Of a stretch of 46,880 nucleotides of DNA, positions 1 through 45,599 are shown one piece after another. The stretch is from Escherichia phage BEK2. Numbering within the stretch: position 1 is the first letter of the stretch; each line of letters opens with the position of its first letter. Both the position numbers and the translations under genes were made by a program. The stretch is from sequence record MN158206.1; one strand, given 5' to 3'. The notes under the pieces were generated by a model that made no database searches, was not told the DNA's origin, and saw only the letters and a list, made by a program, of their open reading frames with translations.

Positions 1-507
1 ATGAGCAAAGCAGCATTAAAGATGGGCGAAGGAAATTTCAAGGCGCTCTACAACAAGAAGTATGGCGATATTGCTATGGTGGCAATCAACCGCAAGTACA
101 CGCCTGAGGAAGTTTTCGATTTTGCGGTGAGATACTTCTCTTGGGCTGAAAGTGAGGTAATCAAAGCTATTGAGACGGCGGCTTTCCATGGCGTGGTTAG
201 TGAAAGCCTTGTACACAAACCGCGAGTGTTTACATTAACCGGGCTGGCGCTCTTTATGGGTGTTAACATCAATAGATTCGCTCGATGGCGCACTGAGGCT
301 GGATACTCTGATGTGATGGAATTTATTGATAACGTAATCTACGAGCAGAAGTACCAGCTTGGAGTTGCGGGTATCATCAACTCTACCATCGTTGGTAAAG
401 AGCTTGGTATTGATAAACCGCAGGAGATTAAGATTAGCAACAACTCCACAGCTAATGACGTTGATAGTATGAAGGAAGCACTGGAGTCCGTGATTAGTAA
501 GCTATAG
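1..507 (+). CDS. terminase small subunit (putative)
   Basis: 168-aa ORF directly upstream of the HNH/terL pair. ATG at nt 1 is served, across the window junction, by AAGGAGG (46868-46874) and a TGgTATAAT promoter (46847-46855). Assignment by size and position only. Confidence 0.55.
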   Translation: MSKAALKMGEGNFKALYNKKYGDIAMVAINRKYTPEEVFDFAVRYFSWAESEVIKAIETAAFHGVVSESLVHKPRVFTLTGLALFMGVNINRFARWRTEAGYSDVMEFIDNVIYEQKYQLGVAGIINSTIVGKELGIDKPQEIKISNNSTANDVDSMKEALESVISKL

Positions 508-547
508 CACTTATTGTTAAAAGAAGAGGCCCAATCAATGAGATAAT
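504..547 (+). promoter_or_regulatory. box promoter cassette P0
   Basis: ATAGCACTTATTGTTAAA (504-521), 21-nt spacer, GATAAT (542-547). The terS stop TAG (505-507) lies inside the box. A GGCCCA/TGGGCC hairpin spans the spacer. Drives the HNH gene. Confidence 0.55.
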
Positions 548-575
548 GGGCCCAACAAACTAGCGAGGTGGCGAT

Positions 576-1088
576 ATGAATTGGCATGATTATTTTGAAT
601 ACAAAGATGGGAAGATTTACTGGAAAGATTACGATAGCGAGAGGCTTGGAAGGAGAAGGATACAGCGAAGATTCATAGGGAAAGAGGTTGGCGGCATTGA
701 TAAAAGCCTAGGGTATGTTAGGGTAAACATGCCTGGTAAAAAATATTGGGTTCATAGAATAATCTGGGAGATGCATAACGGAGTAATACCAGAAGGTATG
801 CAAATTGACCGTATAAATCATGTTAGAAATGTTAATAGGATAGAAAACCTTAGGTTAGTTACAATTCAGGAAAATAGAAAGAATCAGTCAATAAATTCGA
901 GGAATAAGACCGGGGTTACCGGAGTCTGCATAGTATCTAGGACTGGCAAATATGCAGCTCAAATAAAAAAGGATGGAGAGAATATTCACTTGGGATTCTT
1001 TGATAATATTCACGACGCGTCGATTGTCAGGGCGAGGGCTGAATTTATTCTTGGGTATCATAAAAACCACGGGAGGAAAGATGAGTGA
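576..1088 (+). CDS. HNH-family homing endonuclease with AP2-like DNA-binding domain (HNH core degenerate)
   Basis: VHRIIWEMHNG...IDRINHVRNVNRIENLRLVT fits the phage HNH_3 pattern, but the usual D-H is D-R. TGVTGV...GKYAAQI...HLGFFD is AP2-like. Inserted between terS and terL; its stop overlaps the terL start (ATGAGTGA). Confidence 0.8.
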   Translation: MNWHDYFEYKDGKIYWKDYDSERLGRRRIQRRFIGKEVGGIDKSLGYVRVNMPGKKYWVHRIIWEMHNGVIPEGMQIDRINHVRNVNRIENLRLVTIQENRKNQSINSRNKTGVTGVCIVSRTGKYAAQIKKDGENIHLGFFDNIHDASIVRARAEFILGYHKNHGRKDE

Positions 1089-2652
1089 TTTAATCGTATG
1101 GGATGAGCTGACATACGCAGAAAAGATGGCTATCAAGGCCATCTCTGAGCATAGTTTCGAGGGGTTCTTGCGGTGTTTCTTCCAGATAACTCAGGGCGAG
1201 AGATTCAAAATGAATTGGCATGCGAAGTACCTATGCCGTGTTATAGATGAGATTCTCGAGGGAAAGAGAAAGGATACCATCATAAACGTAGCTCCCGGAT
1301 CAGCCAAAACCGAACTTTTTAGCATTCACTTCCCTGTGTATAGCATGATTAAGATTAAGAAGGTCAGGAATCTTAGTTTGTCGTTCTCTGATTCATTGGT
1401 TAAGCGCAACTCCAAACGCGTCCGTGACCTTATTAAGTCAAAGGAATTTCAGGAGCTCTGGCCTTGCACCTTTGGAACGTGCAGGGATGACGAGATTCAG
1501 GTTCTGGATGAGAATGGCAAAGTTAGGTTTGAGTCTATATCCAAGGCGATGGCAGGACAGGTGACGGGAAGCAGGGGAGGCTACATGACTGACGATTATA
1601 GTGGTTGCATAATGCTTGATGACCCACTAAAGCCTGATGACGCGTTAAGTAATGTAAGAAGAGAGGCTGTCAACATGCTTCTCAAGAACACAATTCGTTC
1701 ACGTCGAGCTAGCTCAGTAAAGGGAAAGGAAACGCCAATACTTTCCGTGCAGCAAAGACTTCATGTTCTGGACACTAGCCACTTCATGGAGTCAGGGCAA
1801 ATGGGCATAAAGTTCGACGTAGTGAAAGTTCCAGCCATAGTCACAGAGGATTACGCCGACACGCTTCCTGATTGGATCAAGCAACAATTTATTGATGATG
1901 TTCTTTCATCACCATTTGTAGAGCGGGATGGGGTTAAGTATTACAGCTACTTTCCGGCAAAGGAGTCAATAGAAGACCTGATGGCCATGTGGGATGCTGA
2001 CCAGTACACGTTCCTTAGTCAGTATCAACAAGAACCAGTAGCACTTGGCGGCAATCTGATTAACGTGGATTGGTTCCAGCGCCTTAGCGATACATTCAGA
2101 CCTCCCGCTAAGTATGATTATCGATTCATCACATGCGATACTGCGATGACTACAAAGAGTTATAGTGACTTCTCTGTACTTCAGTTGTGGGGCTATAAGG
2201 ACGCCAAGATTTACCTGATAGACCAGCGCAGAGGTAAGTGGGAGGCGCCAGAGTTGGAAGCTGAACTGCTGGACTTCGAGAAGAAATCAAGGGCAACCAG
2301 TCAGGCAGATGGCATCCTCCGAAAGATTATCATCGAGAAGAAAGCCTCTGGTATCGGTCTTATTCAATCGGCAGGTAGAGTTATGCGAACACCGATAGAG
2401 CCATACGTGCCGGATAACGACAAGCTAACTAGGGTAATGAGCGCATTGCCACAGATTAAAGCTGGTAACGTAGTTCTTCCCGAGTCAGCGTCGTGGTTAA
2501 ACGGATTGCTTACTGAGGTTGCGGCTTTTACGGCAGATGATTCGCATAAGCACGATGACCAAATTGATACCATGACAATGGCAATCAACCTGGTTCTGAA
2601 CATTGCGGACGATCCTAAGGCGCGACTAATGCGCATAGCGGGAATTAAATAG
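1081..2652 (+). CDS. terL: terminase large subunit
   Basis: Walker A-like VAPGSAKT and Walker B-like CIMLDDPLKPDD. C-terminal acidic nuclease-type motifs (ITCDTAMT, HKHDDQIDT). GGGAGG SD before ATG 1081. The 973 start in the ORF track lies inside the HNH gene. Confidence 0.85.
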   Translation: MSDLIVWDELTYAEKMAIKAISEHSFEGFLRCFFQITQGERFKMNWHAKYLCRVIDEILEGKRKDTIINVAPGSAKTELFSIHFPVYSMIKIKKVRNLSLSFSDSLVKRNSKRVRDLIKSKEFQELWPCTFGTCRDDEIQVLDENGKVRFESISKAMAGQVTGSRGGYMTDDYSGCIMLDDPLKPDDALSNVRREAVNMLLKNTIRSRRASSVKGKETPILSVQQRLHVLDTSHFMESGQMGIKFDVVKVPAIVTEDYADTLPDWIKQQFIDDVLSSPFVERDGVKYYSYFPAKESIEDLMAMWDADQYTFLSQYQQEPVALGGNLINVDWFQRLSDTFRPPAKYDYRFITCDTAMTTKSYSDFSVLQLWGYKDAKIYLIDQRRGKWEAPELEAELLDFEKKSRATSQADGILRKIIIEKKASGIGLIQSAGRVMRTPIEPYVPDNDKLTRVMSALPQIKAGNVVLPESASWLNGLLTEVAAFTADDSHKHDDQIDTMTMAINLVLNIADDPKARLMRIAGIK

Positions 2653-2692
2653 CACGAATTGCTAAACATAAAAGCCAGGGATGGCTTATAGT
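2649..2692 (+). promoter_or_regulatory. box promoter cassette P1
   Basis: ATAGCACGAATTGCTAAA (2649-2666), 22-nt spacer containing an AGCCA/TGGCT hairpin, TATAGT (2687-2692). The terL stop TAG is inside the box. Confidence 0.65.
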
Positions 2693-2727
2693 TACTTCAC
2701 ACAAACGAGATGAGAGGAGATAAACAA

Positions 2728-3111
2728 ATGGGACGCACTTCAAAGGTTGTATATCTTGGAAGCAACACTGGAGAGTGTGGTGGTTTTACAGTAGGAAAGG
2801 AATATAAGGCTTACAATTATAATACTGAATATAATTACATTTCAACTTATGATGATAAAGGTAGCTATCGTCAAATCAAGAACGGAGCATTCCACCACTT
2901 CAAACTCCATGATGAGGATGACCATTTTGTAACTGAGACTGAGTGCGCAGTCATGCAGCCCAGCGAAGATAAAAAACCATCTCTAATATATTGCATAAAC
3001 GGTCATGAAGTTGACATGATTGAGTTTGAAAATGTGCGCCATAAGGTTCTAGAGCTTGATGCTTATGGCGTAAAATGCGACACAATCAAGTTCGAAGTAA
3101 AATTCGAGTAA
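2728..3111 (+). CDS. hypothetical protein (insulated cassette between terL and portal)
   Basis: 127 aa; GAGAGGAG SD before ATG 2728. Bounded by P1 and terminator 3133-3155. N-terminus carries the FTVGKEY...YDDKG small-domain signature seen in other cassette-first genes. Confidence 0.6.
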   Translation: MGRTSKVVYLGSNTGECGGFTVGKEYKAYNYNTEYNYISTYDDKGSYRQIKNGAFHHFKLHDEDDHFVTETECAVMQPSEDKKPSLIYCINGHEVDMIEFENVRHKVLELDAYGVKCDTIKFEVKFE

Positions 3112-3132
3112 TCAAAAACTGTGTGATAAACT

Positions 3133-3155
3133 AGCCCCTAAATGGGGCTTTTTTT
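3133..3155 (+). terminator. rho-independent terminator
   Basis: AGCCCC-TAAAT-GGGGCT followed by T7. Confidence 0.8.
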
Positions 3156-3168
3156 ATTGGAGAAAAAC

Positions 3169-4437
3169 ATGGTTAAGACAGACAGCTACGCCAATATATT
3201 TCTCGGCGGCAGTGATGGTAGTGAGATTTACGGGAGCTTACAGAATCAGGAACCTACAATTCTGGGTTCGCTTTATGCAAATAATGCCATAGTGCGTAGA
3301 ATTATCGACACAATCCCTGAGACAGCATTAGCGGCAGGATTCCACATTGATGGCATTGATGATGAGCCTGCCTTCTGGTCACGCTGGGATGATCTAGAAA
3401 TGACGCAGAATATTAACGATGCTTGGTCTTGGGCTAGATTATTCGGTGGAGCCGCTATTGTCGCTATCGTTAAGGACAATAGGGCGCTAACAAGTCCTGT
3501 CAGAGAAGGTGCCGAACTTGAAACTGTTAGAGTTTACGACCGCACACAAGTAAAAGTACAAACTCGCGAGGAGAATCCCCGTAACGCACGTTTTGGTAAG
3601 CCACTAACCTATCGCATTACCACAAATGAGAGCGATATGTTCTATGATGTGCATTACAGCAGAATTCACATCATTGACGGAGAGCGAATTCCTAACGTAA
3701 TGCGTCGGCAAAATGACGGCTGGGGCCGCAGCGTTCTATCCAGTGACATTCTTGACTCAATCAAGGATTACACCAACTGCGAACGACTGGCTACGCAACT
3801 ACTGAGAAGAAAGCAGCAAGCAGTGTGGAAAGCCAAAGGTCTGGCTGAGTTGTGTGATGATAGCGAGGGATTTGGTGCCGCAAGGTTGCGCCTAGCACAG
3901 GTTGATAATAATAGCGGAGTTGGTCAGGCGATTGGGATTGATGCAGAATCTGAAGAGTATAGCGTTCTAAACTCTGACATTGGCGGGATTGATGCGTTTC
4001 TGGATAAGAAGTTTGACAGAATCGTTGCTCTGAGCGGTATTCATGAAATTATCCTCAAGAACAAAAACGTTGGCGGCGTGTCATCAAGTCAAAACACTGC
4101 ACTTGAGACATTCCACAAGCTAATTGACCGCAAGCGTAACTCTGAGCTGCTTCCTGTTCTTGAGTTCTTAATTCCGTTCATCGTTAACGTTGACGAATGG
4201 TCGGTTGAGTTTAACCCCTTAGCTCAGGAATCAAGCAAGGACAAAGCGGAGATTCTGGAGAGGAACGTAAACAGCATCGCGACGCTAATTGCATCTGGCG
4301 CTATGGATATTGATGAGGCGAGAGATACATTGCGTACAATCGCTCCAGAGGTTAAGATTAGTGACGGTTCAGTAGAGACAGAGGTGACAATTAGTGAAAC
4401 CAGTAACGACCCGCTGGAAGTATCCGCAGACAATTGA
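3169..4437 (+). CDS. portal protein
   Basis: 422 aa, located between terL and the Mu-F-like head protein. GGAG SD before ATG 3169 (the 3142 ATG lies inside the terminator hairpin). Acidic C-terminus. Confidence 0.75.
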   Translation: MVKTDSYANIFLGGSDGSEIYGSLQNQEPTILGSLYANNAIVRRIIDTIPETALAAGFHIDGIDDEPAFWSRWDDLEMTQNINDAWSWARLFGGAAIVAIVKDNRALTSPVREGAELETVRVYDRTQVKVQTREENPRNARFGKPLTYRITTNESDMFYDVHYSRIHIIDGERIPNVMRRQNDGWGRSVLSSDILDSIKDYTNCERLATQLLRRKQQAVWKAKGLAELCDDSEGFGAARLRLAQVDNNSGVGQAIGIDAESEEYSVLNSDIGGIDAFLDKKFDRIVALSGIHEIILKNKNVGGVSSSQNTALETFHKLIDRKRNSELLPVLEFLIPFIVNVDEWSVEFNPLAQESSKDKAEILERNVNSIATLIASGAMDIDEARDTLRTIAPEVKISDGSVETEVTISETSNDPLEVSADN

Positions 4438-5122
4438 GAGCCAGGTTAACCGCAATCTAAGTATTGCGGTAACTGAGTTAATTTCAGCAATGAAGGAGTC
4501 AGCAACAAGGCTTAAAATTGATACTGCGGAGGAACTGGAGGAGGAGGATGGATACCTTGATGGGGTAATTGCGGCATTGGTGGCTTCCTTTATATCAACA
4601 ATCCCAGCCATAGGGGCGGCGATATACAGATACAATAGCTCTCAATTTCTTGCGCTTGCAATCAAGACCGGAGGAAGATCCAACCCTAGCGTTCTAGACC
4701 TTGAAGTTAATGGCATTAATGGCGATGAGCCGTGGTATAATGATGACCTTAATCAGTGGGTTTACACCACAAACAAGTCAGCGATTAAATTACTGAATAA
4801 CATTAAAGATGACTTCATTCAAACGGCATCAACAGCACAGAATGGTGACTACGTTGAGTTATCAGATAGGTACAAAACATACAGAAAGCGAACGGCAAAC
4901 ATCGCATCTGGGATTGTGTCAAGCCTAAACTCTACACTTATGAGGCGGAGGATTGATGATGCTGGCGTTAGTCGTTACATCTGGCATGGTATGCTGGACG
5001 ATAGGGAGCGCCAGTCTCACATAGCAAGAGAAGGCCTTAGCTTTAAACTTGGTGGTAACGATATATTTCCAGGTCAAGAATACGGCTGTCGTTGTTGGTC
5101 TGTTCCAGATTGGGAATCATAA
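4394..5122 (+). CDS. head morphogenesis protein (Mu F / SPP1 gp7-like)
   Basis: C-terminal WHGMLDDRERQSHIAREG...PGQEYGCRCW matches the Mu F-type domain signature. GTG start with GAGGTG SD overlaps the portal 3' end; alternative ATG at 4492. Confidence 0.65.
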   Translation: MKPVTTRWKYPQTIESQVNRNLSIAVTELISAMKESATRLKIDTAEELEEEDGYLDGVIAALVASFISTIPAIGAAIYRYNSSQFLALAIKTGGRSNPSVLDLEVNGINGDEPWYNDDLNQWVYTTNKSAIKLLNNIKDDFIQTASTAQNGDYVELSDRYKTYRKRTANIASGIVSSLNSTLMRRRIDDAGVSRYIWHGMLDDRERQSHIAREGLSFKLGGNDIFPGQEYGCRCWSVPDWES

Positions 5123-5134
5123 TAGGAGAATTAA

Positions 5135-6223
5135 ATGAGTAAAATCCGCTATGATAGCGCGAAGGTGAAGGCTCGATTTGATGAAAACGGCTTTCTGGTT
5201 GATACCCCGATTGTTGCACGCGTCGGGGTGCAAACCTACTACCTTCCAGATGGCACAGAACGCAGAGAATTTAGACCAGCCTCGGAGGTCTTTAAGCCTG
5301 ATTCTCTGGATAGTTATCAGGGCAAACCAATTACATTAGGTCATGTATTTGTTAACTCAGATAATGCTAAAGAGGTCGTTGTAGGCGCGGTGTCTGGCTC
5401 AGCAATGCGTGAAGATTCAAATGTGATTGTTCCACTAACTGTTTACGACAAAGAATCAATCGAGAAGGCCAAAAATGGAATTGCTGGTGAGCTATCTGTA
5501 GGGTACTCAACTGTTGACGTTGAGTCCAAAGGCTGGGGTAGTAACGAAACTGGTGAGTATAAGCTAGATGGTGAGTATCAATCACAGGATGAAATTCCTC
5601 CTGACTGGGTTAGATTCGATGCGCTGCAAACTGAAATTAAAGTAAACCATGTCGCGCTGGTATACAAAGGAAGAGCGCAAGTAGCAAAGTTAAATTTTGA
5701 CGCTCAACAGGAAAACCCGTATACTACTGACGTTGATATCAATAAAGAGGATAAACAGGAAATGATTAAGATTAAACTCGACGGCGCGCAGGAATTCGAA
5801 GTTGCACCGGAAATCGCTTCTCACATCGAAGCACTGAACGCAAAGGCTGACACTGCAATCGCAGAGCGCGACGCACTGAAAGCCAAGGTTGATGCAATGC
5901 CTGCTGAAATCGAAGCTGCAGTTGCTAAAGCGAAAGCTGATGCTGATGCCCTGGCCGCTCTGGTTGCCGTTGCCGCTGAAGCTGGTGTCAAAGCTGATGG
6001 TCTGGATTCTAAAGGTATTAAAGTTGCCTACGTTAAAGAAATCTCCGGCCTTGATGTTAGTGAGAAGTCTGACGCATACATCGACGCGGCATTCGACATT
6101 GCCAAAGAATCTGATAAAATGGCTGAAGTACGTAAAGCGACTACCTCTTCCGATAAATCTGACAGCGCCGATGAGCCTAAGAAATTAGATCCGCGTGCTC
6201 GTTTAGCTAAAATTAAGAAATAA
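5135..6223 (+). CDS. head scaffolding protein (putative)
   Basis: 362 aa. Globular N-terminal part, then an Ala/Lys/Glu-rich helical tail (AERDALKAKVDAMPAEIEAAVAKAKADADALAAL). Position is between the Mu-F-like and capsid genes. AGGAG SD. Confidence 0.5.
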   Translation: MSKIRYDSAKVKARFDENGFLVDTPIVARVGVQTYYLPDGTERREFRPASEVFKPDSLDSYQGKPITLGHVFVNSDNAKEVVVGAVSGSAMREDSNVIVPLTVYDKESIEKAKNGIAGELSVGYSTVDVESKGWGSNETGEYKLDGEYQSQDEIPPDWVRFDALQTEIKVNHVALVYKGRAQVAKLNFDAQQENPYTTDVDINKEDKQEMIKIKLDGAQEFEVAPEIASHIEALNAKADTAIAERDALKAKVDAMPAEIEAAVAKAKADADALAALVAVAAEAGVKADGLDSKGIKVAYVKEISGLDVSEKSDAYIDAAFDIAKESDKMAEVRKATTSSDKSDSADEPKKLDPRARLAKIKK

Positions 6224-6235
6224 GGAGTTATAAAC

Positions 6236-6757
6236 ATGGCAATTCGTTCCGTAGCACTGGCTGGTATGATTTCTGATACTTCGCTCTATAACATCGACGG
6301 CGCTTGCGTGGTTGGCGGTGCAGCACCAATTCCGGTTGGCACTTTTGTTGGCGTAACTTCAGCTCAGCCTGTAGATGGTCACAAGGTTGTTGGCCTACCA
6401 GTCGTAACTGGCTCGGCAGTTAAACCTTATGGTGTTGTTGTTAAATCTCATTACGAGACTCCAGATGGCACAGCTCGCGTAAATGAAGCAGTTAACGTAA
6501 TGACTCATGGTCGAATCTGGGTTCGTACAACTCTAGCGGCTGCGCCAGTTTTTGGTAGTAAGGTTTACGTAAACGCGAGTGGCGTTGTTACTACTGAGGT
6601 TGCTACCACTACTTGGGAGACTGGCTTTACATTTGCTGGCGGTTATGTGTCGGCTTACGCTGGCGGCGCTGACCCAATTAAGCAAGGTGAAAGCGTTGAT
6701 GGCGCACTGGTTGAAGTTCAGTTGATTCAATCCGCAGACTCAACCGTCGCCGCTTAA
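6236..6757 (+). CDS. capsid accessory/decoration protein (putative)
   Basis: 173 aa, Gly/Val/Ala-rich, AAGGAG SD. Lies immediately upstream of the major capsid unit and is followed by a strong terminator. Function inferred from position only. Confidence 0.4.
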   Translation: MAIRSVALAGMISDTSLYNIDGACVVGGAAPIPVGTFVGVTSAQPVDGHKVVGLPVVTGSAVKPYGVVVKSHYETPDGTARVNEAVNVMTHGRIWVRTTLAAAPVFGSKVYVNASGVVTTEVATTTWETGFTFAGGYVSAYAGGADPIKQGESVDGALVEVQLIQSADSTVAA

Positions 6758-6775
6758 TAATTAAGATATATAAAG

Positions 6776-6796
6776 CCTCCTTCGGGAGGTTTTTTT
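6776..6796 (+). terminator. rho-independent terminator (UUCG loop)
   Basis: CCTCC-TTCG-GGAGG followed by T7. Confidence 0.85.
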
Positions 6797-6802
6797 ATAC
6801 CA

Positions 6803-6830
6803 TTGCGTGGGCTAAAAACTCGTGTATAAT
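6803..6830 (+). promoter_or_regulatory. sigma70-type promoter for the capsid gene
   Basis: TTGCGT (6803-6808), 16-nt spacer, TATAAT (6825-6830). No palindromic box. Confidence 0.6.
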
Positions 6831-6868
6831 GAATCCGTAGACACCTAACCGAAAAGGAACAATAAAGA

Positions 6869-7813
6869 ATGGCCATTAAATTTGATGCAGAACAAGCAAA
6901 AATCACCGCTCATCTCGAGCAAATGGGCGTAGATAAGGCCGATGCCGCAGGTATCTGGACCGTTAGTCAGCTAACCGCATCTCTGAAACGTGCTTACGAA
7001 AAAGAGTATGCAGACAACTCAGTTGTTAACATTTTCCCTGTAACCAATGAAATCCCTGGTCACGCGAAGTATTTCGAATATCCAGAGTTTGATGGTGTTG
7101 GTATTGCTCAGATTATCGCTGATTACTCTGACGACCTGCCGCTGGTTGATGCATTCATGACCGAGAAGCAAGGTAAAGTGTTCCGTTTCGGTAACGCATT
7201 CCTGATTTCTACTGATGAAATTAAAGCTGGCGCCGCAACTGGTCAATCACTGTCAACTCGCAAGCAGGCGCTGGCTTTCGAAGCGCACGACAACCTGCTT
7301 GATAAACTGGTTTGGTCTGGCTCCACTCCGCACGGTATCCCAAGCGTATTCGATCAGCCGAACATCAACAACGTTGTTGCAACTCCAAACTGGAATTTGC
7401 CGCAGAACGCAATTAATGACGTCACCGCTATGATTGATGCGGTTGAGAGTGCAACTCAAGGCCTCCATCATGTGACTGACATTCTGCTCCCGGCCTCTGC
7501 TCGCCGAGTAATGCAGCAGCTAGTTCCGAATGCCGCCCTGAGCTACGGTGAATTGTTCACTCGTAACAACCCAGGTCTGAATATTCGTTTCTTGCAGTTC
7601 CTGGATAACTACGATGGTGCGGGTGGAAAAGCCGCTCTGGCGTTTGAGAAGAATCCGCTTAACGCTAGCATCGAGATTCCAGAGGCTACTAACGTACTTC
7701 CTGGCCAAGTGAAGGATTTGCATATCAAATACCCCGTAACTTCCAAATCGACAGGCTTGGTAATTTACAGACCTTTAACATTTGCAGTTATCAAAGGCAT
7801 CACCTTTGCTTAA
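6869..7813 (+). CDS. major capsid protein
   Basis: 314 aa; a stand-alone expression unit with its own promoter and strong terminators on both sides. Position follows the scaffold gene. AAGGA SD. Confidence 0.7.
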   Translation: MAIKFDAEQAKITAHLEQMGVDKADAAGIWTVSQLTASLKRAYEKEYADNSVVNIFPVTNEIPGHAKYFEYPEFDGVGIAQIIADYSDDLPLVDAFMTEKQGKVFRFGNAFLISTDEIKAGAATGQSLSTRKQALAFEAHDNLLDKLVWSGSTPHGIPSVFDQPNINNVVATPNWNLPQNAINDVTAMIDAVESATQGLHHVTDILLPASARRVMQQLVPNAALSYGELFTRNNPGLNIRFLQFLDNYDGAGGKAALAFEKNPLNASIEIPEATNVLPGQVKDLHIKYPVTSKSTGLVIYRPLTFAVIKGITFA

Positions 7814-7819
7814 TAAATC

Positions 7820-7842
7820 GCCCTCTTCGGAGGGCTTTTTTT
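7820..7842 (+). terminator. rho-independent terminator (UUCG loop)
   Basis: GCCCTC-TTCG-GAGGGC followed by T7. Confidence 0.85.
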
Positions 7843-7847
7843 ACGTC

Positions 7848-7876
7848 TGTACCAAATGGAATTGTTGGGTTATAAT
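7848..7876 (+). promoter_or_regulatory. possible sigma70-type promoter
   Basis: TATAAT at 7871-7876 with only a weak -35 candidate (TGTACC) 17 nt upstream. Confidence 0.3.
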
Positions 7877-7906
7877 CACTCAATCAGATAAACAAAGGAG
7901 ACAAAA

Positions 7907-8152
7907 ATGATTCGCTTAGAACACACTGGCGCTTGCCTTATCGTTTACAAGGGTGAGAAATATTTGCCTGGTGACACTTTTGAGGTTGATGTAATTTGCG
8001 ACGGACTCAAGCGTTTAATCGCAGAGGGTAAACTCACCATTGAGGGTGACGCCAAAGCAACCAAACAGATCGCGCAAGAAGTTGTTAGCAAGAAAAAGCG
8101 CAAGGAACCGAAAACCATCTCCGAAGCTGAGAGTGGCAACGAGTACAAATAA
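7907..8152 (+). CDS. hypothetical protein
   Basis: 81 aa, AAGGAG SD, Lys-rich C-terminus, followed by a terminator. Confidence 0.55.
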   Translation: MIRLEHTGACLIVYKGEKYLPGDTFEVDVICDGLKRLIAEGKLTIEGDAKATKQIAQEVVSKKKRKEPKTISEAESGNEYK

Positions 8153-8158
8153 CAAACA

Positions 8159-8180
8159 GGGCGCTTCGGCGTCCTTTATT
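8159..8180 (+). terminator. rho-independent terminator (UUCG loop)
   Basis: GGGCGC-TTCG-GCGTCC (one G:U pair) followed by TTTATT. Confidence 0.6.
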
Positions 8181-8193
8181 GTATGGAGCTAAT

Positions 8194-8595
8194 ATGAATG
8201 ATGCAATTTTGGCGTTTATGCGCTCTCTTGTTCCTGCTCTCAAAGCGGTGGATGACGAATCAATTAATGTATGGATTGATTTGGCACGTCTATACGTATG
8301 CGAAAGCAAGTTTGGCGCAGACAAAGATAAGGCCGTAGGACTTTACGCACTACACCTAATGCTTGCTGATGGCGCGTTTAAGGGTGAGAGTGAAGGGCTG
8401 GAAACATACAGCCGTAGAATGGCAAGTTATGCACTGAGCGGTGAATTCTCTATCACCTATGATAGCCAATCAGCAATCCAAGGTGATTTATCATCTTCCT
8501 CCTGGGGGCGCATGTACAAAGCACTGCTCCGCAAGAAAGGTGGCGGCTTCGGTTTAATTACTTCCGCTGGTGGCGGTGGGTGCGGTTGCCGATGA
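8194..8595 (+). CDS. head-tail connector protein (putative)
   Basis: 133 aa. ATG 8194 preceded by GGAG. First of four short, translationally coupled genes between the capsid and tube genes. Confidence 0.45.
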   Translation: MNDAILAFMRSLVPALKAVDDESINVWIDLARLYVCESKFGADKDKAVGLYALHLMLADGAFKGESEGLETYSRRMASYALSGEFSITYDSQSAIQGDLSSSSWGRMYKALLRKKGGGFGLITSAGGGGCGCR

Positions 8596-8963
8596 ACTAC
8601 AACGAAATAGAATCAATTACTCGCGCTGGTATTAACTTCTTTAGTGATGCAAATGGTGTTTATGAAATGAGCACCGGAGCCGGTTATGTTGAAATCGTTA
8701 ACGGCGTTGAGGTAGAGGTTCCTTCGCAGACATCCCAGATAAAAGGATTGGTGCGAGAAATCAAGACGCGCGATATTGATGGCGAGTTTATCCAGTTTGG
8801 CGATAAGCGCGGAATCTTCACGGCACAGGTGGAAATTAAGCAGGGTTATCAGATTAAGGTTGATGGCGAGACTTTCGTTGTTATTGACCCACGGCCCGTT
8901 AAACCAACCGGAACAGTTGTTGGGTATAGACCGATTCTTCGTAGGGTGGCTACTTATGGCTAG
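8592..8963 (+). CDS. head-tail adaptor/closure protein (putative)
   Basis: 123 aa. ATGA start/stop overlap with the upstream gene. Function inferred from position. Confidence 0.4.
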   Translation: MNYNEIESITRAGINFFSDANGVYEMSTGAGYVEIVNGVEVEVPSQTSQIKGLVREIKTRDIDGEFIQFGDKRGIFTAQVEIKQGYQIKVDGETFVVIDPRPVKPTGTVVGYRPILRRVATYG

Positions 8964-9796: not shown

Positions 9797-9811
9797 CAAA
9801 AGGAAAAATAC

Positions 9812-10468: not shown

Positions 10469-10476
10469 AGCACAAA

Positions 10477-10496: not shown

Positions 10497-10501
10497 ATTG
10501 C

Positions 10502-35781: not shown

Positions 35782-35825
35782 ATAGCACTTTTTGCCTAAA
35801 GCATGCCGTAGAAATGCGGCATAAT
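35782..35825 (+). promoter_or_regulatory. box promoter cassette P13 (1-nt insertion variant)
   Basis: ATAGCACTTTTTGCCTAAA (35782-35800) directly after the stop TAA, an ATGCCG/CGGCAT hairpin in the spacer, CATAAT (35820-35825). Confidence 0.5.
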
Positions 35826-37499: not shown

Positions 37500-37543
37500 A
37501 TAATAACAAAAGCCCACAAGGGGCTTTTAACAAAAGGTGCTAT
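37500..37543 (-). promoter_or_regulatory. box promoter cassette P14 with nested terminator
   Basis: Minus strand: ATAGCACCTTTTGTTAAA (37543-37526) right after the stop TAA, a 22-nt spacer holding a hairpin plus T-run, TATTAT (37505-37500). Confidence 0.55.
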
Positions 37544-37882: not shown

Positions 37883-39466
37883 TCACCCCAGCAGTCGCGG
37901 ATTAATGTAAACCTTATCACCAATCAGGCACGTGTAGTTTTTCTCGTCAAGCATTGGCAGTAGGTGATCTTTAATCTTCGTCATTACCCCAGCCTGAGCC
38001 TCGAACGGCTTAACCTTTCGAGCAGCTTCATATAATGAGCGAATACCAACTACACCCTTGCCGTTCTTTCCTTGCTTGATCAGGATATCAATCAGCTTAT
38101 TCATCTCGGCATTATCGCCAGCGTGACCAGCGGCGTTAGCAGATGAAAGATAAGTCTTGCTAAGTTCATTGAACATAATTACAGCTTCTTGCATGGTATC
38201 AAGCTCAATCTCTCTTGACTTCTGTGGACTCCCGCCATTTGGGTTAAACCAGTTACGCACAGTGTGAAGAACCGCCGCAATCCTGATGGCCTGCTTATCG
38301 AACTTACCCAGGGCGCCGCGCAACATTGTGTGGGAATACTTCCCGCCGTCCGCAAGGTGAGGCTCCATCTCCTGACGTGCGCGGTTAAGATACTTCATTG
38401 CTGAGTTGCTCACTGTCAACTTAACATCTTGCTCATTCATTATTTCATGAACTAATCGGAAATAGTCGGCCTTGAGTCCACCATCAATTGGCTCATATGT
38501 TGAATCTCCATTCTCATCAACAAACACACGCTCGCCCAAAAATGACTTTTCACGCACAAGCAGAAATCGCTCCGACACACCGATACCACGTGCGCCAGCG
38601 TTCATGATTGCATTGATTGTTTCGTCTTGCGCAATTACTGAGATGCAACCCATAGCAACGAAGCTCATGTTGTTCTCTGCGTTCGCACGCGCAATGGACA
38701 CGTTACCAGCATCCCATGCCTTCAGTACAAGTTCGCTGTTCGTCTTCTTGGATCCGTCACCGTACGTCATACCTAGCAGTGAGTTGACGCTCGTCGCCTC
38801 ATCAGAGATAACCGCGAAGTTACCTTGTCGGTTGTTTATTCGTGCCAGACCTTCCGGCGTGGTGTCGGATACAGGGAAAACGATATCACAAAGTTTCTCG
38901 AGCTTTTCCTCAAGCTCCTCCTTCTCCTCAAAAAGAGAAGCCATCTCTGAAGGAGATTTCTCCTGCTTCATCTCTTTGGATAATGCAGATAGTTTGGCCA
39001 TGATCTTCTTGCGCTCACGCTTGCGAACTTCATTAAGACGCTCAGTCTCAGCAATCATTGGAGCAATCGATAGCGAGTTAATTGCTGATTTACCAGTTGA
39101 TGGCGGCTGGCTTGTCACGACGTAGAGCGCAGTTGGTTGTTGGGTTCCATGATACTCAACTGTAAATCGGCCCAGCATCGCAGCGGAAATACACCCCAGG
39201 AAGTGCATGTATGCGGACGACTCAGGAAACTGAACCGAACGAGCTATGTTAGATGACAGTTTGCCAACAACATCAATATCATTACCTAGTGAGATTACGG
39301 GATACTTGTCATTAGCTGCATCAATCTCGACCGGAGCCTTCCAAAATGATTGAGAATGACGATAGCCATTGGCATTGATAGCGACGCGCAGGGGTGGGAG
39401 GTTGTCCGCAGCAGCAATTGCCATAACCTGTTCAACAGACAGTTTATCTTCGTTGAAATCAAACAT
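37883..39466 (-). CDS. P-loop NTPase, DUF3987/YfjI-like (candidate replication initiator/helicase-type protein)
   Basis: 527 aa. Walker A SQPPSTGKSA, Walker B NFAVISDEAT. N-terminal 42 aa and C-terminal ~70 aa are paralogous to ORF 42798-43322. Family name is from recollection and needs an HMM search. Confidence 0.6.
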   Translation of the reverse strand: MFDFNEDKLSVEQVMAIAAADNLPPLRVAINANGYRHSQSFWKAPVEIDAANDKYPVISLGNDIDVVGKLSSNIARSVQFPESSAYMHFLGCISAAMLGRFTVEYHGTQQPTALYVVTSQPPSTGKSAINSLSIAPMIAETERLNEVRKRERKKIMAKLSALSKEMKQEKSPSEMASLFEEKEELEEKLEKLCDIVFPVSDTTPEGLARINNRQGNFAVISDEATSVNSLLGMTYGDGSKKTNSELVLKAWDAGNVSIARANAENNMSFVAMGCISVIAQDETINAIMNAGARGIGVSERFLLVREKSFLGERVFVDENGDSTYEPIDGGLKADYFRLVHEIMNEQDVKLTVSNSAMKYLNRARQEMEPHLADGGKYSHTMLRGALGKFDKQAIRIAAVLHTVRNWFNPNGGSPQKSREIELDTMQEAVIMFNELSKTYLSSANAAGHAGDNAEMNKLIDILIKQGKNGKGVVGIRSLYEAARKVKPFEAQAGVMTKIKDHLLPMLDEKNYTCLIGDKVYINPRLLG

Positions 39467-39496: not shown

Positions 39497-39539
39497 ATTA
39501 TATCAACGACCGCTTATAATTCATTATCAATTTTGCTAT
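39497..39539 (-). promoter_or_regulatory. box promoter cassette P15 (variant box)
   Basis: Minus strand: ATAGCAAAATTGATAAT (39539-39523) right after the stop TAA. TTGATA is followed by a 22-nt spacer and TATAAT (39502-39497). Confidence 0.55.
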
Positions 39540-39929: not shown

Positions 39930-39973
39930 AATATACAGGAAAAGCCCCGAAGGGCTTTAGCAATTAGTGCTAT
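39930..39973 (-). promoter_or_regulatory. box promoter cassette P16 with nested terminator
   Basis: Minus strand: ATAGCACTAATTGCTAAA (39973-39956), a 22-nt spacer containing AGCCC-TTCG-GGGCT, TATATT (39935-39930), leader CATCGAAACGAAAC. The box encodes NSTNC plus the stop of the upstream gene. Confidence 0.65.
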
Positions 39974-41300: not shown

Positions 41301-41344
41301 ACTATACGCCATCCGTGGCGGTGAGTTTTAGCAATTCGTGCTAT
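41301..41344 (-). promoter_or_regulatory. box promoter cassette P17
   Basis: Minus strand: ATAGCACGAATTGCTAAA (41344-41327), a 22-nt spacer with a CGCCA/TGGCG hairpin, TATAGT (41306-41301), leader CATCGAAACGAAACG. The box encodes NSTNC plus a stop. Confidence 0.7.
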
Positions 41345-41670: not shown

Positions 41671-41715
41671 ATAATAGCGAATCACACCCGATCGGTCATT
41701 AGCAAAAAGTGCTAT
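41671..41715 (-). promoter_or_regulatory. box promoter cassette P18
   Basis: Minus strand: ATAGCACTTTTTGCTAAT (41715-41698), 23-nt spacer, TATTAT (41676-41671), leader CCATCGAAACGAAG. Confidence 0.6.
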
Positions 41716-41728
41716 TCGTTAGATTTAT

Positions 41729-41816
41729 GGATTGTTGCAGATATTGCAATGATTCACATAATTATTGCACATACAGCAATATTGCTTCAGATGCAATGAT
41801 GTTTTTGATTGTTGCG
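41729..41816. repeat. cluster of ATTGCA/TGCAAT-type short repeats and palindromes
   Basis: GATTGTTGC x2 (41730, 41807), TGCAATGAT x2 (41745, 41792), palindromes ATTGCAAT (41744-41751) and GCAATATTGC (41776-41785). Non-coding. Confidence 0.7.
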
Positions 41817-41905
41817 AAAAGTGAAATGAAGTGGGGAGTGAGCGAATGAAAGATGGATGGACTACCATACAAGTTGATTTTGATTCTGGCTGGGCCATTT
41901 TCACG

Positions 41906-42231
41906 CCTACACGTAACGCCAGTAGCGCGATGTAAGCCAAGGCCAATCGTTACGTGAGTTACGCGCAGCTACGCCCGGACTTACACTATAAGTGCTTAAT
42001 ATATATATATATCTTCTTTCTATTATTATTATTAATATTAATATTATTGTATGTAAGTCGTGTAACGTGGGTCCTAGCGATATCTATATGTTTTTTCCTA
42101 TCAGAATACATTATTGCTATTTTATGTGGGATTTAGCCAGTATGGGGCCATTGCACTCATTTGCCTCGTTACACGCACGACACGAAACTACATTGAGCTA
42201 TAGCTGGGCTGGTGTGCCATTTCGCGTAACG
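41906..42231. repeat. non-coding iteron/AT-rich region B (homolog of 23321-23645)
   Basis: CGTAACG/CGTTACG copies at 41912, 41948, 41958, 42062, 42167, 42225. (TA)n at 41998-42012 and (TAT)n at 42021-42048. A 42-nt block (42189-42230) is 36/42 identical to 23603-23644. Confidence 0.8.
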
Positions 42232-42258
42232 ACCCCCAAAAGTTACCAAAAATTACAC

Positions 42259-42287
42259 TTGACTACATGTGTAAGTCGGGATATGAT
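42259..42287 (+). promoter_or_regulatory. sigma70-type promoter
   Basis: TTGACT (42259-42264), 17-nt spacer, TATGAT (42282-42287). No palindromic box. Confidence 0.65.
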
Positions 42288-42798: not shown

Positions 42799-43322
42799 TG
42801 TTTGACTTTAACGAGGATAAACTGACAGAAGAGCAGGTTATGCAAGTAGCCATGGCAGATAGCCTTCCACCACTACGTGTTGCAATCAGCGCTAACGGGT
42901 ATCGACAGTCAACGGCGTTTTGGGGTTCGATTGATACCTCAGAGGTGTATAGTGGTGATGAGCTTGGTGTACTGATTAAAATCATCAGGAAAATGGGAGT
43001 TAACGGCAAAGGAGTTGTCGGCATTAGGTCTCTATACGAAGGTGCTCGCAAGGTTAAGCCCTTTGAGGGTAGCAATGGAATCATGGCGCGTATTAAGGAT
43101 GAGCTCATCCCAGCTCTAGAGGAAATTAATATCGCTTGCCTAATTGGAGATAAGATTTATGTCCACCCAGCTATCATTGATGAGTACTGGCAACCCAACT
43201 TCAAAACTTACGAAGGTGAGCACCCCAGTAGACTACCACACCACTTGCGATACAGTGACGATGAGATAATAAAGGCGATTCGGTTCTACTGGGAAGCTAA
43301 ATCACTGCTTAGCGGCGGATAG
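42798..43322 (+). CDS. domain-deleted paralog of the 37883-39466 P-loop protein (N- and C-terminal modules only)
   Basis: First 42 aa are 32/42 identical to the full-length protein. NGKGVVGIRSLYEGARKVKPFE matches its C-terminal module. No Walker motifs. Unique 45-aa tail. Confidence 0.7.
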   Translation: MFDFNEDKLTEEQVMQVAMADSLPPLRVAISANGYRQSTAFWGSIDTSEVYSGDELGVLIKIIRKMGVNGKGVVGIRSLYEGARKVKPFEGSNGIMARIKDELIPALEEINIACLIGDKIYVHPAIIDEYWQPNFKTYEGEHPSRLPHHLRYSDDEIIKAIRFYWEAKSLLSGG

Positions 43323-43362
43323 CACGAATTGCTAAAAGGGGATTCATCCTGACTGGTATAAT
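43319..43362 (+). promoter_or_regulatory. box promoter cassette P19
   Basis: ATAGCACGAATTGCTAAA (43319-43336; stop TAG inside), 22-nt spacer, TGgTATAAT (-10 at 43357-43362). Confidence 0.7.
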
Positions 43363-44149: not shown

Positions 44150-44193
44150 ATAGCACTTTTTGCCTAACCCTCTTCGGAGGGTTTTGTTATAGT
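44150..44193 (+). promoter_or_regulatory. box promoter cassette P20 with nested terminator
   Basis: ATAGCACTTTTTGCCTAA (44150-44167), CCCTC-TTCG-GAGGG-TTTT (44168-44185), TATAGT (44188-44193), leader CATCGAAAGCAAAC. Confidence 0.6.
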
Positions 44194-44231: not shown

Positions 44232-44324
44232 ATGATTTCTTTACTGATGATTATCCCTGCTGTTATCGCCCTGGGTCTGATGGTTAGTGCTGGTGAGTTC
44301 TACGTCCCAGTCAACAAGAAATAG
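44232..44324 (+). CDS. possible 30-aa membrane peptide
   Basis: MISLLMIIPAVIALGLMVSAGEFYVPVNKK. GGAG SD 8 nt upstream. Stop TAG lies inside the next box. Confidence 0.35.
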   Translation: MISLLMIIPAVIALGLMVSAGEFYVPVNKK

Positions 44325-44363
44325 CACGAAATGATAAGCCGCTCCGGCGGGTTTTGTTATAGT
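44321..44363 (+). promoter_or_regulatory. box promoter cassette P21 (degenerate right half) with nested terminator
   Basis: ATAGCACGAAATGATAAG (44321-44338), CCGC-TCCG-GCGG-GTTTT, TATAGT (44358-44363). Near-duplicate of P20. Confidence 0.5.
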
Positions 44364-44392: not shown

Positions 44393-44485
44393 GTGAAGCA
44401 ATACCCATCAAGCAATCACCATAACGGTCACATCATGCAGTTCTATCGCCACAATCTGAAGACTAATGGAGTATTTGGAAAATGA
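44393..44485 (+). CDS. possible 30-aa peptide
   Basis: GTG start after GAGAGGAAAGAG. ATGA overlap with the next gene. Confidence 0.3.
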
Positions 44486-44721: not shown

Positions 44722-44855
44722 TTTACATCCACACGTACTACACTGGTAAGTTTAATAGCGTTAAGCATGCTCGAGTTCACGATAGCTACGATAGTGCAAA
44801 GGCTCAATGGTTGGTTCTTGGTGGTGATATTAATTCATATAGAGTCGCTGAATAG
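44718..44855 (+). CDS. hypothetical micro-protein
   Basis: 45 aa. ATGA overlap upstream; stop TAG inside box P22. Confidence 0.45.
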   Translation: MIYIHTYYTGKFNSVKHARVHDSYDSAKAQWLVLGGDINSYRVAE

Positions 44856-44895
44856 CACTAATTGCTAAAACAGTATTGGGGTAATTTGTTATAGT
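44852..44895 (+). promoter_or_regulatory. box promoter cassette P22
   Basis: ATAGCACTAATTGCTAAA (44852-44869), 22-nt spacer, TATAGT (44890-44895), leader CATCGAAACGAACG (44901-44914). Confidence 0.7.
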
Positions 44896-44925
44896 TACCC
44901 CATCGAAACGAACGAGGAAGCAGAA

Positions 44926-45105
44926 ATGAAATTCCAACAAGGCGACCCCAAGCTCCAGGCCAACCACTTCGATGGCTACGCAACATTCATCATCGCCCAG
45001 GCATGCGGAATGTGTGAAGAGCCTCAGGTTCACACAATCCACTTAACCGAAGAGCAAGCCCGAGAGCTGGCTTACGAAATTCTAGAGCAATTGAACCGAA
45101 TTTAA
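44926..45105 (+). CDS. hypothetical small protein
   Basis: 59 aa, GAGGA SD, first gene after P22. Antisense ORF 44830-45042 rejected. Confidence 0.5.
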   Translation: MKFQQGDPKLQANHFDGYATFIIAQACGMCEEPQVHTIHLTEEQARELAYEILEQLNRI

Positions 45106-45156
45106 CGCGCCTAAAGCGCATTCTAACGAACGATAATTTAAGTAAGGTGATTCATC

Positions 45157-45288
45157 ATGGAAGTACAAGAAAGCCCAGTAGGGTGGTGTAAGAGAATGCA
45201 GGACGAAGCTAAGACTGGTGAAGAGGCAATGGCTTACTACGAACTGGCGCAAATGTGGATGGAACGGGAGAAGAAGAGAAATGACTAA
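45157..45288 (+). CDS. hypothetical micro-protein
   Basis: 43 aa, AAGGTGA SD. 8-nt overlap (ATGACTAA) with the next ORF. Confidence 0.4.
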   Translation: MEVQESPVGWCKRMQDEAKTGEEAMAYYELAQMWMEREKKRND

Positions 45289-45433
45289 CACTTGTGTATT
45301 TTTTTATGACGGTGAATTTATTGATGACTTAATCTACTTCAATGAAAAGTATGGCGACACATTCGAATGCGACGGCGACAATCTCGAGGTTCTGTCAACT
45401 TTCAATAGGGGTGGAAAAAATGAACTTCACTGA
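45281..45433 (+). CDS. hypothetical micro-protein
   Basis: 50 aa from the internal ATG of track ORF 45218-45433. Confidence 0.45.
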   Translation: MTNTCVFFYDGEFIDDLIYFNEKYGDTFECDGDNLEVLSTFNRGGKNELH

Positions 45434-45572
45434 ATATGTGATTGCATGTGAACGACTGGTTTTCGATATGAAGACTTTCCACTGGTTCATCATTAAGGAT
45501 CTAATTAAGCCTTATAAGCAATGCGTTACGCCAGAGGCATTTATAAAGAACTTCTATAGCACTAAAAGCTAA
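45420..45572 (+). CDS. hypothetical micro-protein
   Basis: 50 aa from ATG 45420 (GGGGTGG SD). The C-terminal YSTKS plus stop is encoded by box P23. Confidence 0.5.
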   Translation: MNFTEYVIACERLVFDMKTFHWFIIKDLIKPYKQCVTPEAFIKNFYSTKS

Positions 45573-45599
45573 ACGCAGTCGCCACGGATGGCATATAAT
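45556..45599 (+). promoter_or_regulatory. box promoter cassette P23 (variant right half)
   Basis: ATAGCACTAAAAGCTAAA (45556-45573), a 22-nt spacer with the same CGCCA/TGGC hairpin as P17, TATAAT (45594-45599). Confidence 0.6.

Follow-up and report, generated by a model that had tools for sequence, protein, structure and literature searches.

A repeated box at a fixed distance from the −10 hexamer in T1-like phages, a candidate upstream element of their standard promoter

T1 belongs to the seven classical T phages, and to our knowledge the control of its transcription has never been worked out. Here we analyse a repeated 18-nucleotide (nt) box, with the core inverted repeat TAGCA-N5-TGCTA, in the genome of Escherichia phage BEK2 (MN158206.1; the whole 46,880-nt stretch is referred to as the window), a virulent T1-like siphovirus, and in the genomes of its relatives. 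The box is one part of a gene-junction cassette of ~85 nt, and we put at about one half the probability that it serves T1-like phages (Drexlerviridae) as the upstream recognition element of their standard promoter. Papers on T1-like genomes report just 3–10 σ70 promoters for 70–86 genes.

The box is already known, being the same element as a 21-nt direct repeat, aaATAGCACnnnTTGnTAAAA, in the 2024 re-annotation of phage TLS (PMC11447400). According to that paper, TLS carries 21 copies, which are co-directed with transcription and lie ~76 nt upstream of start codons, similar repeats are said to occur in T1, Rtp and Rogue1, and no more than three canonical σ70 promoters were found in TLS; the function of the repeat was left open, with a stoperator, an enhancer-binding site and an UP-like element as the options. 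The TLS repeat agrees with the window box in consensus, orientation, distance to the start codon (~76 against 72–89 nt) and its GAA/TTT/AAA-type centres, and is similar in copy number (21 against 24). The accessible part of the paper contains no fixed 22-nt distance to a −10 hexamer, no G-14, C-1/A+1 or leader, no nested hairpin, no overlap with stop codons and no other genera. Relative to it, the ~85-nt cassette, its hairpin, the 22-nt spacing (N22), the conservation across the family and the lack of half-site covariation are new here.

A similar arrangement of parts has been described as the PeSL cassettes of the T4-type phages RB49, phi1, PST and nt-1, which run from a stop codon through an AT-rich region, −35, stem-loop and −10 to a Shine-Dalgarno (SD) sequence and start codon; their promoter and terminator activities have been shown by experiment, and they are given a role in the shuffling of small open reading frames (ORFs) (PMC2839356, PMC4122927). 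The stem-loop is mostly placed between the promoter elements or over the −10 (PMC2839356). PeSLs and the T1-like cassette are alike in the order of their parts, in both hairpin positions, in their many copies and in bordering small variable ORFs. However, a PeSL has a near-consensus σ70 −35 at N17 and is AT-rich upstream, whereas the T1-like cassette has no −35 but an 18-nt, G/C-containing box at N22; PeSLs are early-only and mostly found in hyperplastic regions, whereas the T1-like cassette also heads core operons. The PeSL phages belong to a different family, and for the T1-like cassette the corresponding promoter, terminator and recombination activities are predictions.

In its geometry the cassette resembles class II activator promoters (CRP and FNR at −41.5; lambda cI at OR2, −42 of PRM), in which a dyad site has half-sites one helical turn apart. 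The likeness lies in the centre at −42, the weak or absent −35, the strict phasing with the −10 and a candidate reader with a helix-turn-helix (HTH) fold of the Cro/cI type; unlike in class II promoters, the half-sites are unequally conserved and the box would control almost every gene rather than one regulon. Phage promoters in which an upstream box is found and the −35 is missing include the T4 middle (MotA), P1 late (Lpa) and Mu Mor/C promoters. As a matter of general knowledge, these share with the cassette a host-type −10, a phage box in place of the −35 and many copies, but their boxes are centred at about −30 (MotA) and −22 (P1), as opposed to −42 in the T1-like phages. Homologues of MotA/AsiA, Lpa and Mor were not found among the ten window proteins that were scanned against Pfam and PHROGs.

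Enrichment, conservation and variation of the box

Gene annotation was taken from MN158207.1 (Escherichia phage BEK3; Drexlerviridae, Braunvirinae; 46,884 bp), which matches bases 1–20000 of the window at 100%; the window is 4 nt shorter, and coordinates in the record are those of the window plus 4 from ~23.5 kb on. Enrichment was measured against dinucleotide shuffles. The window has 13 exact matches to TAGCA-N5-TGCTA where 0.02 are expected, and 17 matches with up to three mismatches to the 18-mer consensus where 0.26 are expected, so that the original prediction of a box repeated above chance is borne out. All 24 copies that it listed were recovered with their coordinates and strands (Table 1), three of them (23700, 30191 and 39523) being degenerate, and its counts of six exact copies of ATAGCACGAATTGCTAAA (the GAA type) and four of ATAGCACTAATTGCTAAA (the TAA type) hold. 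The consensus of the box is AAATAGCAC-KWW-TTGYTAAAA.

Related genomes carry the box as well: the cassette is present in T1 (19 boxes, up to two mismatches), Klebsiella phage MezzoGao (14), Cronobacter phage CS01 (10) and Vibrio phage Vc1 (17, up to three mismatches). The one outgroup scanned, the unrelated Klebsiella phage Geezett, has two chance-level matches without a −10 or leader, and in a pattern scan of IMG/VR the multi-copy loci all lie on contigs of 28–53 kb, mostly of ~50 kb, single matches being chance-like. The 39 core proteins of the five genomes (window, T1, MezzoGao, CS01 and Vc1) are just 37–66% identical while the box is nearly invariant, which makes the box the most conserved sequence that these phages share.

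For promoter numbering the −10 hexamer is taken as −12 to −7 throughout. When 58 cassettes from the window, T1, MezzoGao and CS01 are aligned on this hexamer, the conserved sequence AAATAGCAC / KWW / TTGYTAAAA spans −52 to −32, the box itself being assigned to −51 to −32, with the half-sites TAGCA at −49 to −45 and TGCTA at −39 to −35. In 119 cassettes defined by their core promoter and used for position-by-position and pair covariation analysis, G-47 and C-46 are invariant (119/119) and G-38 is found in 118. The left half-site is essentially fixed, and C-37 of the right half-site is replaced by T in about one third of copies in both sets. The variants in the five genomes come as discrete alleles and not as independent substitutions: TTGTTA is confined to boxes with a T-rich central triplet (TTT, plus single TTA and CTT cases), and boxes with a GAA centre have TTGCTA, apart from occasional one-off variants.

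The box has a superficial resemblance to a σ54 (−24/−12) promoter, TGGCAC-N5-TTGCW, which was rejected: the box reads TAGCAC-N3-TTGCT and so is spaced 2 nt too short, the first G of the GG is A in 117 of the 119 cassettes, and the conserved −10 and +1 lie elsewhere. We know of no host regulator with a TAGCA-N5-TGCTA site. An Rfam scan of the window returned nothing but a tRNA.

Anatomy of the junction cassette

The cassette consists, in order, of the upstream stop codon and box, a 22-nt spacer that usually holds a GC hairpin, G-14, the −10, C-1/A+1, a leader, the SD sequence and ATG. In the window the distance from TTGCTA to the −10 is 22 nt in 18 of the 24 copies and 21, 23 and 24 nt in two each; the original prediction had the dominant spacing right, with a count of 16 that is too low. 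Its −10 counts (TATAGT in eight copies, TATAAT in four, TATTAT in three) agree with ours. In a survey of 78 boxes from four genomes (window, T1, MezzoGao and CS01), a −10-like hexamer stands at spacer 22 in 50 boxes, at 21 in six and at 23 in three, and at spacers 15–20 in none. This rules out that TTGCTA is a genuine −35 whose −10, 17 nt away, had been overlooked. At the canonical distance a −35 is missing, −35 to −30 reading AAAACN in the 58 cassettes, and the dyad centre proposed at −42, with its class II-like geometry, stands. Since spacer sequences are unrelated from copy to copy, the spacing must be under selection and is not a legacy of copying.

The same association is obtained when cassettes are chosen independently of the box. 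A core-promoter model spanning −14 to +12, and trained only on genomes other than the window, finds 18 strong sites in the window, 16 of which have a box at the expected offset. Among 132 distinct cassettes picked by core promoter alone in 25 T1-like loci, 117 (89%) carry the box, with up to three mismatches, at exactly N22. The genes behind the box are of all kinds (packaging, head, tail, replication, recombination, lysis and accessory alike). The suggestion that core head and tail genes are never preceded by a copy fails at the level of operons, as boxes 504, 2649 and 10502 head the packaging, head and tail operons; nor does the suggestion of an early/middle or accessory temporal class survive the breadth of these genes and the 89% figure. 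As a promoter, the element is the general one of the family, not that of a temporal or accessory class.

Beyond what the original prediction described, the cassette includes G-14, C-1/A+1, a leader, a hairpin in the spacer or across the −10, and a stop codon at the box. In the 58 cassettes, G-14 is present in 46 (with TG in about one third of copies), the −10 consensus is T-A-T-a-A/g-T, C stands at −1 and A at the predicted transcription start, +1, in 49, and an A/C-rich leader, the presumed initial transcribed sequence, begins ATCGAAAC. A second type of leader and SD sequence, AACCAATCAGGAGG, recurs in a subset of cassettes, and ACCAATCAG occurs 18 times in Vc1.

For the segment from −32 to +3, folding energies average −10.2 kcal/mol, as opposed to −4.5 in shuffled segments and −4.7 in 35-mers drawn at random from the genome; a value of −6 kcal/mol or below is seen in 81% of cassettes and in 32% of genomic 35-mers. 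The hairpins are of two kinds. Those of class A are contained entirely within the spacer, with a 3′ arm that extends to −13 and the U-rich −10 region directly after it, a terminator-like arrangement (e.g. cccggcgaaagccggg-TATTATT), and those of class B have their arms on either side of the −10 or overlapping it (e.g. GGGGTAA...TATAGT-TACCCC). Because hairpin sequences differ between copies, it is the structure that is selected. Only some of the hairpins pass strict terminator criteria in a consensus scan.

The cassette is also compact. The upstream stop codon lies inside or against the box in 15 of the 24 copies (as the TAG of the box in six, as a TAA just before it in six and as the TAA of GCTAAA in three), and the box carries stop codons in two reading frames. 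In 17 of the 24 copies a start codon follows 72–89 nt from the start of the box. Co-orientation with flanking genes, claimed for 23 of the 24 boxes, is correct, the exception being 29140. Three ORFs that are unannotated in MN158207.1 were found at the expected distance past the cassettes at 44150, 44321 and 45556.

The position of the stop codon makes the box the last part of the upstream mRNA, and this raises the possibility that it acts in RNA, where it would close the upstream transcript with a small stem-loop (5 bp, 5-nt loop) and serve as a signal for antitermination, processing or stability like lambda boxB. A hairpin usually follows the box, and the commonest variant (C-37 to T) retains a G-U pair, both of which would suit such a role. 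However, compensatory double changes are absent from all five dyad pairs in the 119 cassettes, other variants break the pairing, and N22 is kept whether the hairpin sits inside the spacer or flanks the −10, which points to a constraint at the level of DNA. Boxes 41698 (the first of the leftward arm), 30945 and 23279 have no close co-oriented gene upstream and so do not form the 3′ end of any transcript, as is the case for the first box of each divergent arm. We regard a role in RNA as very improbable; given half-sites without compensatory changes, the box appears to be read as sequence and not as a hairpin.

Our favoured explanation is that the box stands in for the missing −35 hexamer of a standard promoter. 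The hairpin of the cassette would stop or attenuate transcripts arriving from upstream, and box and −10 would restart transcription of the next gene or genes. A protein kept in constant register with RNA polymerase, and bound to the same helical face, would recognise the box as double-stranded sequence, in a class II activation geometry such as that of lambda cI at OR2 of PRM. Canonical sites (TTGACA-N16–18-TATAAT) are not above shuffles in the window (12 against 7–17, and in a second scan 35 against 38.3 ± 5.5); were the box taken away, the genome would retain hardly any promoters.

The main alternative is that host RNA polymerase reads the box without a phage factor, the cassettes being strong constitutive promoters that combine G-14 or an extended −10 with an UP-like or displaced −35 contact. 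The spacers known for σ70 range from 15 to 21 nt. The 22-nt spacer is beyond that range, no −10 lies 15–20 nt from TTGCTA, and A, the σ70 −35 consensus base at position 4 of the hexamer, is found there in 0/58 and 3/119 cassettes. An UP element as such was rejected as an identity for the box, since UP elements consist of A/T tracts between −40 and −60 that are contacted in the minor groove with no base-specific G/C, whereas the box has its invariant G-47 and C-46 and near-invariant G-38. On the other side, the box is invariant across phages of Escherichia, Klebsiella, Cronobacter and Vibrio, which fits a slow-evolving σ70 or α subunit as reader, its right half TTGYTA contains the TTG of the −35 consensus, and G-14 is frequent; the similarly laid-out PeSL promoters work with host polymerase alone, and an UP-like role was raised by the TLS authors (PMC11447400). 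Reading by the host is possible on these grounds, if on the whole unlikely.

Candidate readers of the box

If the box is read by a protein of the phage, our leading guess is a factor whose gene is expressed from one of the few canonical σ70 promoters. The only visible candidate is the 161-amino-acid core protein encoded at 30447–30932, which had been proposed as an HTH regulator. It is a core gene, and its product has a Cro fold. It matches phrog_2856 (“transcriptional regulator”) and, weakly, P22_Cro/YdaS, and is found by tblastn in 824 phage records, those among the matches listed being all T1-like genomes of ~44–52 kb. Its structure model (predicted local distance difference test score, pLDDT, of 88) has an all-α central domain that matches dimeric Cro proteins, the closest structural matches being Cro repressors. 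Its invariant residues are in the N-terminal arm and the C-terminal module rather than in the putative recognition helix, which varies while the box does not, and in this part the earlier proposal fares less well. Phylogenetic profiling of protein and box is non-discriminating, as both are family-wide. With a recognition helix that changes while the box stays the same, the protein is a weak candidate for the reader. The two other proteins put forward are not supported: Rha (22501–23172) does not belong to the core genes of the family, though the box is family-wide, and the supposed HTH protein at 34651–35781 is an SbcD-like repair exonuclease.

The canonical promoter of the regulator gene is back-to-back with the box promoter of the helicase gene in the window, vB_EcoS_FP (FP), T1, MezzoGao and CS01, and more weakly in Vc1, with overlapping −10 hexamers (30933–31033; in T1, gtgTATTATAgcg), so polymerase probably engages one orientation at a time, and the pair looks like a conserved switch. 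The helicase box lies at about +17 to +34 of the predicted regulator transcript, and a box is present in the regulator leader in six genomes. A canonical promoter of its own and a box in its leader would suit early, box-independent expression of the regulator together with feedback.

The same arrangement would suit autorepression, and a further possibility is that the box is an operator or stoperator of a phage repressor, e.g. the Cro-fold protein, that damps transcription at most junctions. The many co-oriented intergenic copies match the stoperators of mycobacteriophage L5 in copy number and orientation, a comparison also made by the TLS authors (PMC11447400). Conserved orphan boxes without a −10 (29140; T1 34902), the Cro repressors as nearest structural matches, and a reversed box of T1 (15052–15069) that fills the spacer of a promoter-like site, TTGACG-16-TATTAT, before the capsid gene would likewise agree with repression. 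However, occlusion or road-blocking needs no spacing fixed to the nucleotide, the box is upstream of the −10 and +1 and not over them, and without it there would be scarcely any promoters to express the genome. Unlike L5-type phages, these phages are virulent, with no integrase or immunity repressor annotated in the window, T1, MezzoGao, CS01 or Vc1. A stoperator is in our judgement improbable.

Several observations weigh against reading the box as the activator site of a general promoter. The putative recognition helix of the Cro-fold protein is PQAVEEWFKRG in the window, NQTVQGWKERN in T1 and CVRLTNAYRLRG in Vc1, and the box is identical; as a test of covariation, the changed helix and unchanged box of Vc1 count against the HTH reading the box. 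The box is more conserved than any phage protein, which fits a slowly evolving host reader at least equally well, and G-14, with TG in about one third of copies, could permit initiation by host polymerase without an activator. The inequality of the half-sites, the left fixed and the right variable, is unexplained by a simple symmetric dimer. The orphan GCTAAG box at 29140 recurs at the same junction in T1 (34902–34919), also without a usable −10, and reversed boxes immediately precede the major capsid gene in T1 (15052–15069), TLS (DR7) and Vc1 (5713–5730), where the window has none; these orphan and reversed boxes suggest that the box may have a role outside promoters too. No mapping of transcript 5′ or 3′ ends for T1-like phages was found in the searchable literature.

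Module boundaries and box-less promoters

The window and FP are ~88% identical, in blocks of 69–94%. Of the 36 ends of their homology blocks, nine are within 10 nt of a box where 0.69 would be expected at random; the breaks are at 2653, 21759, 24964, 30463, 35792, 37551, 39974, 41706 and 44319, that at 35792 going with an insertion in FP. Some small cassette-flanked ORFs are present in one of the two phages and absent or replaced in the other. ORF 2728–3111 and its cassette, for instance, are an insertion in the window relative to FP (2654–3122) that starts inside box 2649. The breakpoint comparison with FP therefore indicates that cassettes delimit exchangeable modules. The HNH homing endonuclease gene between TerS and TerL (576–1088) is common to both phages.

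The main significance of the box could accordingly be evolutionary, as PeSL-like patches of homology for the gain, loss and swapping of modules. Besides the block ends and the exchanged small ORFs, the discrete alleles (GAA, TAA and TTT), which suggest copying or gene conversion, and the stop codons that the box supplies in two frames speak for this. The excess over gene junctions in general is weak and at most suggestive, with breaks at 10 of 21 junctions with a box and 13 of 50 without (P = 0.07, one genome pair), preferential recombination at cassettes thus being hypothetical, and the rigid spacing to the −10 is left unexplained. There is a small chance that this is the chief role of the box, and it is compatible with a promoter function rather than an alternative to it.

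Promoter-like sites without a box are few (Table 1). The one at 42259–42287 is the positional counterpart of TLS P01 and is likely to be the immediate-early promoter of the rightward arm, and that at 6803–6830 stands between a strong terminator, which it follows directly, and the major capsid gene downstream. Upstream of TerS (46812–46880 and position 1) there is a strong terminator and then a perfect extended −10, TGgTATAAT, with neither box nor −35, from which it follows that the phage also uses classical extended −10 promoters. A tRNA-Arg(TCT) at 46493–46569, absent from the GenBank annotation, follows the σ70-like TTGCAT-17-TAACAT (46298–46326). One arginyl-tRNA has been described in each of four T1-like phages of O157:H7, so that such a tRNA is ordinary for the group.

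The divergent gene arms are separated by a non-coding region of ~540 nt (41716–42258) that holds a cluster of short TTGCA/TGCAA inverted repeats (41730–41815) and a (TA)n/ATT-rich tract (41998–42050). A comparable TATA-rich tract is found close to the left end of the T1 record (~215). The region may be a replication origin or a genome-end region.

Table 1. Copies of the box in the window, with the candidate regulator and the promoters that have no box. Spacers are given in nt, from TTGCTA for boxes and from the −35-like hexamer for the last three rows.
Feature	Coordinates	Strand	Sequence or type	−10 hexamer (spacer)	Remarks
Box	504–521	+	ATAGCACTTATTGTTAAA	GATAAT (22)	Heads HNH gene, then TerL; TerS stop is TAG within box; hairpin GGCCCA..TGGGCC spans −10
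Box	2649–2666	+	Exact GAA type	TATAGT (at 2687–2692)	TerL stop is TAG within box; heads ORF 2728–3111, then portal, head-morphogenesis and protease/scaffold genes (through 6757)
Box	10502–10519	+	TTT type	TATAGT (22)	Leader CATCGAAACGAAA; heads tail-chaperone/tape-measure genes; separate terminator just upstream; sole cassette without spacer hairpin
Box	21741–21758	−	Exact TAA type	TACTAT (22)	Heads ORFs 21449–21679 and 20514–21449; methylase stop is TAA of GCTAAA
Box	22487–22504	−	Exact GAA type	TATAAT (22)	Heads DNA methyltransferase gene; Rha stop is TAG of box
Box	23279–23296	−	Exact TAA type	TATATT (22)	No conserved leader; upstream of Rha-like gene; start codon 148 nt from box start
Box	23700–23717	+	Degenerate ATTGGCAAAACCAATTGG, 11 mismatches	TATAGT	Core intact, 20.9 bits; leader CATCGAAAGC; within annotated coding sequence 23562–23978
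Box	24945–24962	+	Exact GAA type	TATAGT (22)	Heads small ORF, then Erf and SSB; TAA stop directly before box
Box	29140–29157	+	Orphan, GCTAAG variant	No good −10 (TATAAA, 24)	Between primase and tail-fibre genes, opposed to both; ~20 nt upstream of tail-fibre start, other strand
Box	30191–30209	−	Degenerate	CATAAT (23)	Heads primase; −10 inside hairpin, then TTTTTT; hairpin flagged as terminator by scan
Box	30465–30482	−	Partial GCAGCACGAAAAGCTAAA	TATGGT (22)	Heads 62-amino-acid ORF 30209–30397; within 3′ end of regulator gene
Box	30945–30962	+	GTAGCATTTTTTGTTAAA		Helicase promoter, back-to-back with canonical promoter of regulator gene
Box	33441–33458	+	Exact GAA type	TATTAT (22)	Leader; heads small ORFs 33523–34568; VRR-NUC stop is TAG of box
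Box	35782–35799	+	ATAGCACTTTTTGCCTAA	CATAAT (22)	Heads small ORF upstream of lysis genes
Box	37526–37543	−	ATAGCACCTTTTGTTAAA	TATTAT (22)	Terminator-grade hairpin, then −10
Box	39523–39539	−	Degenerate	TATAAT (21)	Heads second helicase gene (37883–39466)
Box	39956–39973	−	Exact TAA type	TATATT (22)	Hairpin GCCCttcgGGGC, TTTT, then −10; leader
Box	41327–41344	−	Exact GAA type	TATAGT (22)	Hairpin CGCCAcggaTGGCG; leader
Box	41698–41715	−	ATAGCACTTTTTGCTAAT	TATTAT (23)	Leader; first promoter of leftward arm
Box	43319–43336	+	Exact GAA type	TATAAT (22)	Hairpin GGGGATT..AATCCCC flanks −10
Box	44150–44167	+	ATAGCACTTTTTGCCTAA	TATAGT (22)	Terminator-grade hairpin; heads unannotated 30-amino-acid ORF 44232–44324, strongly hydrophobic (MISLLMIIPAVIALGLMVSAG...), stop is TAG of next box
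Box	44321–44338	+	ATAGCACGAAATGATAAG	TATAGT (21)	Hairpin; heads unannotated 30-amino-acid ORF 44393–44485
Box	44852–44869	+	Exact TAA type	TATAGT (22)	Hairpin TGGGGTAA..TTACCCCA flanks −10; top core-promoter score in window, 27.4 bits
Box	45556–45573	+	ATAGCACTAAAAGCTAAA	TATAAT (22)	Heads unannotated 36-amino-acid ORF 45630–45740
Core protein, 161 amino acids	30447–30932	−			Candidate box-binding factor; disordered basic N-terminal arm, Cro-fold HTH, conserved C-terminal module
Canonical promoter of regulator gene	30986–31014	−	TTGTCT	TACAAT (17)
σ70-type promoter, no box	42259–42287	+	TTGACT	TATGAT (17)
Promoter-like site, no box	6803–6830	+	TTGCGT	TATAAT (16)	Core 15.0 bits

In its boldest form, which we put forward tentatively and hold to be rather doubtful, the favoured explanation would have nearly the whole T1-like genome transcribed from a single non-canonical promoter class that depends on one small phage factor, either the Cro-fold protein in the role of class II activator or some unrecognised protein by which the host σ70 polymerase is re-targeted, with a terminator built into each spacer, so that gene units are insulated and switched on together. 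If the cassette is a real promoter, it would explain how T1-like genomes are expressed, provide a defined 60-bp substrate for finding the reader, and serve as a finder of small genes and as a rule for their annotation. The nested terminator-in-promoter design is of possible interest for compact, insulated expression units, and the likeness to PeSLs suggests that unrelated virulent phages have converged on the same junction module.

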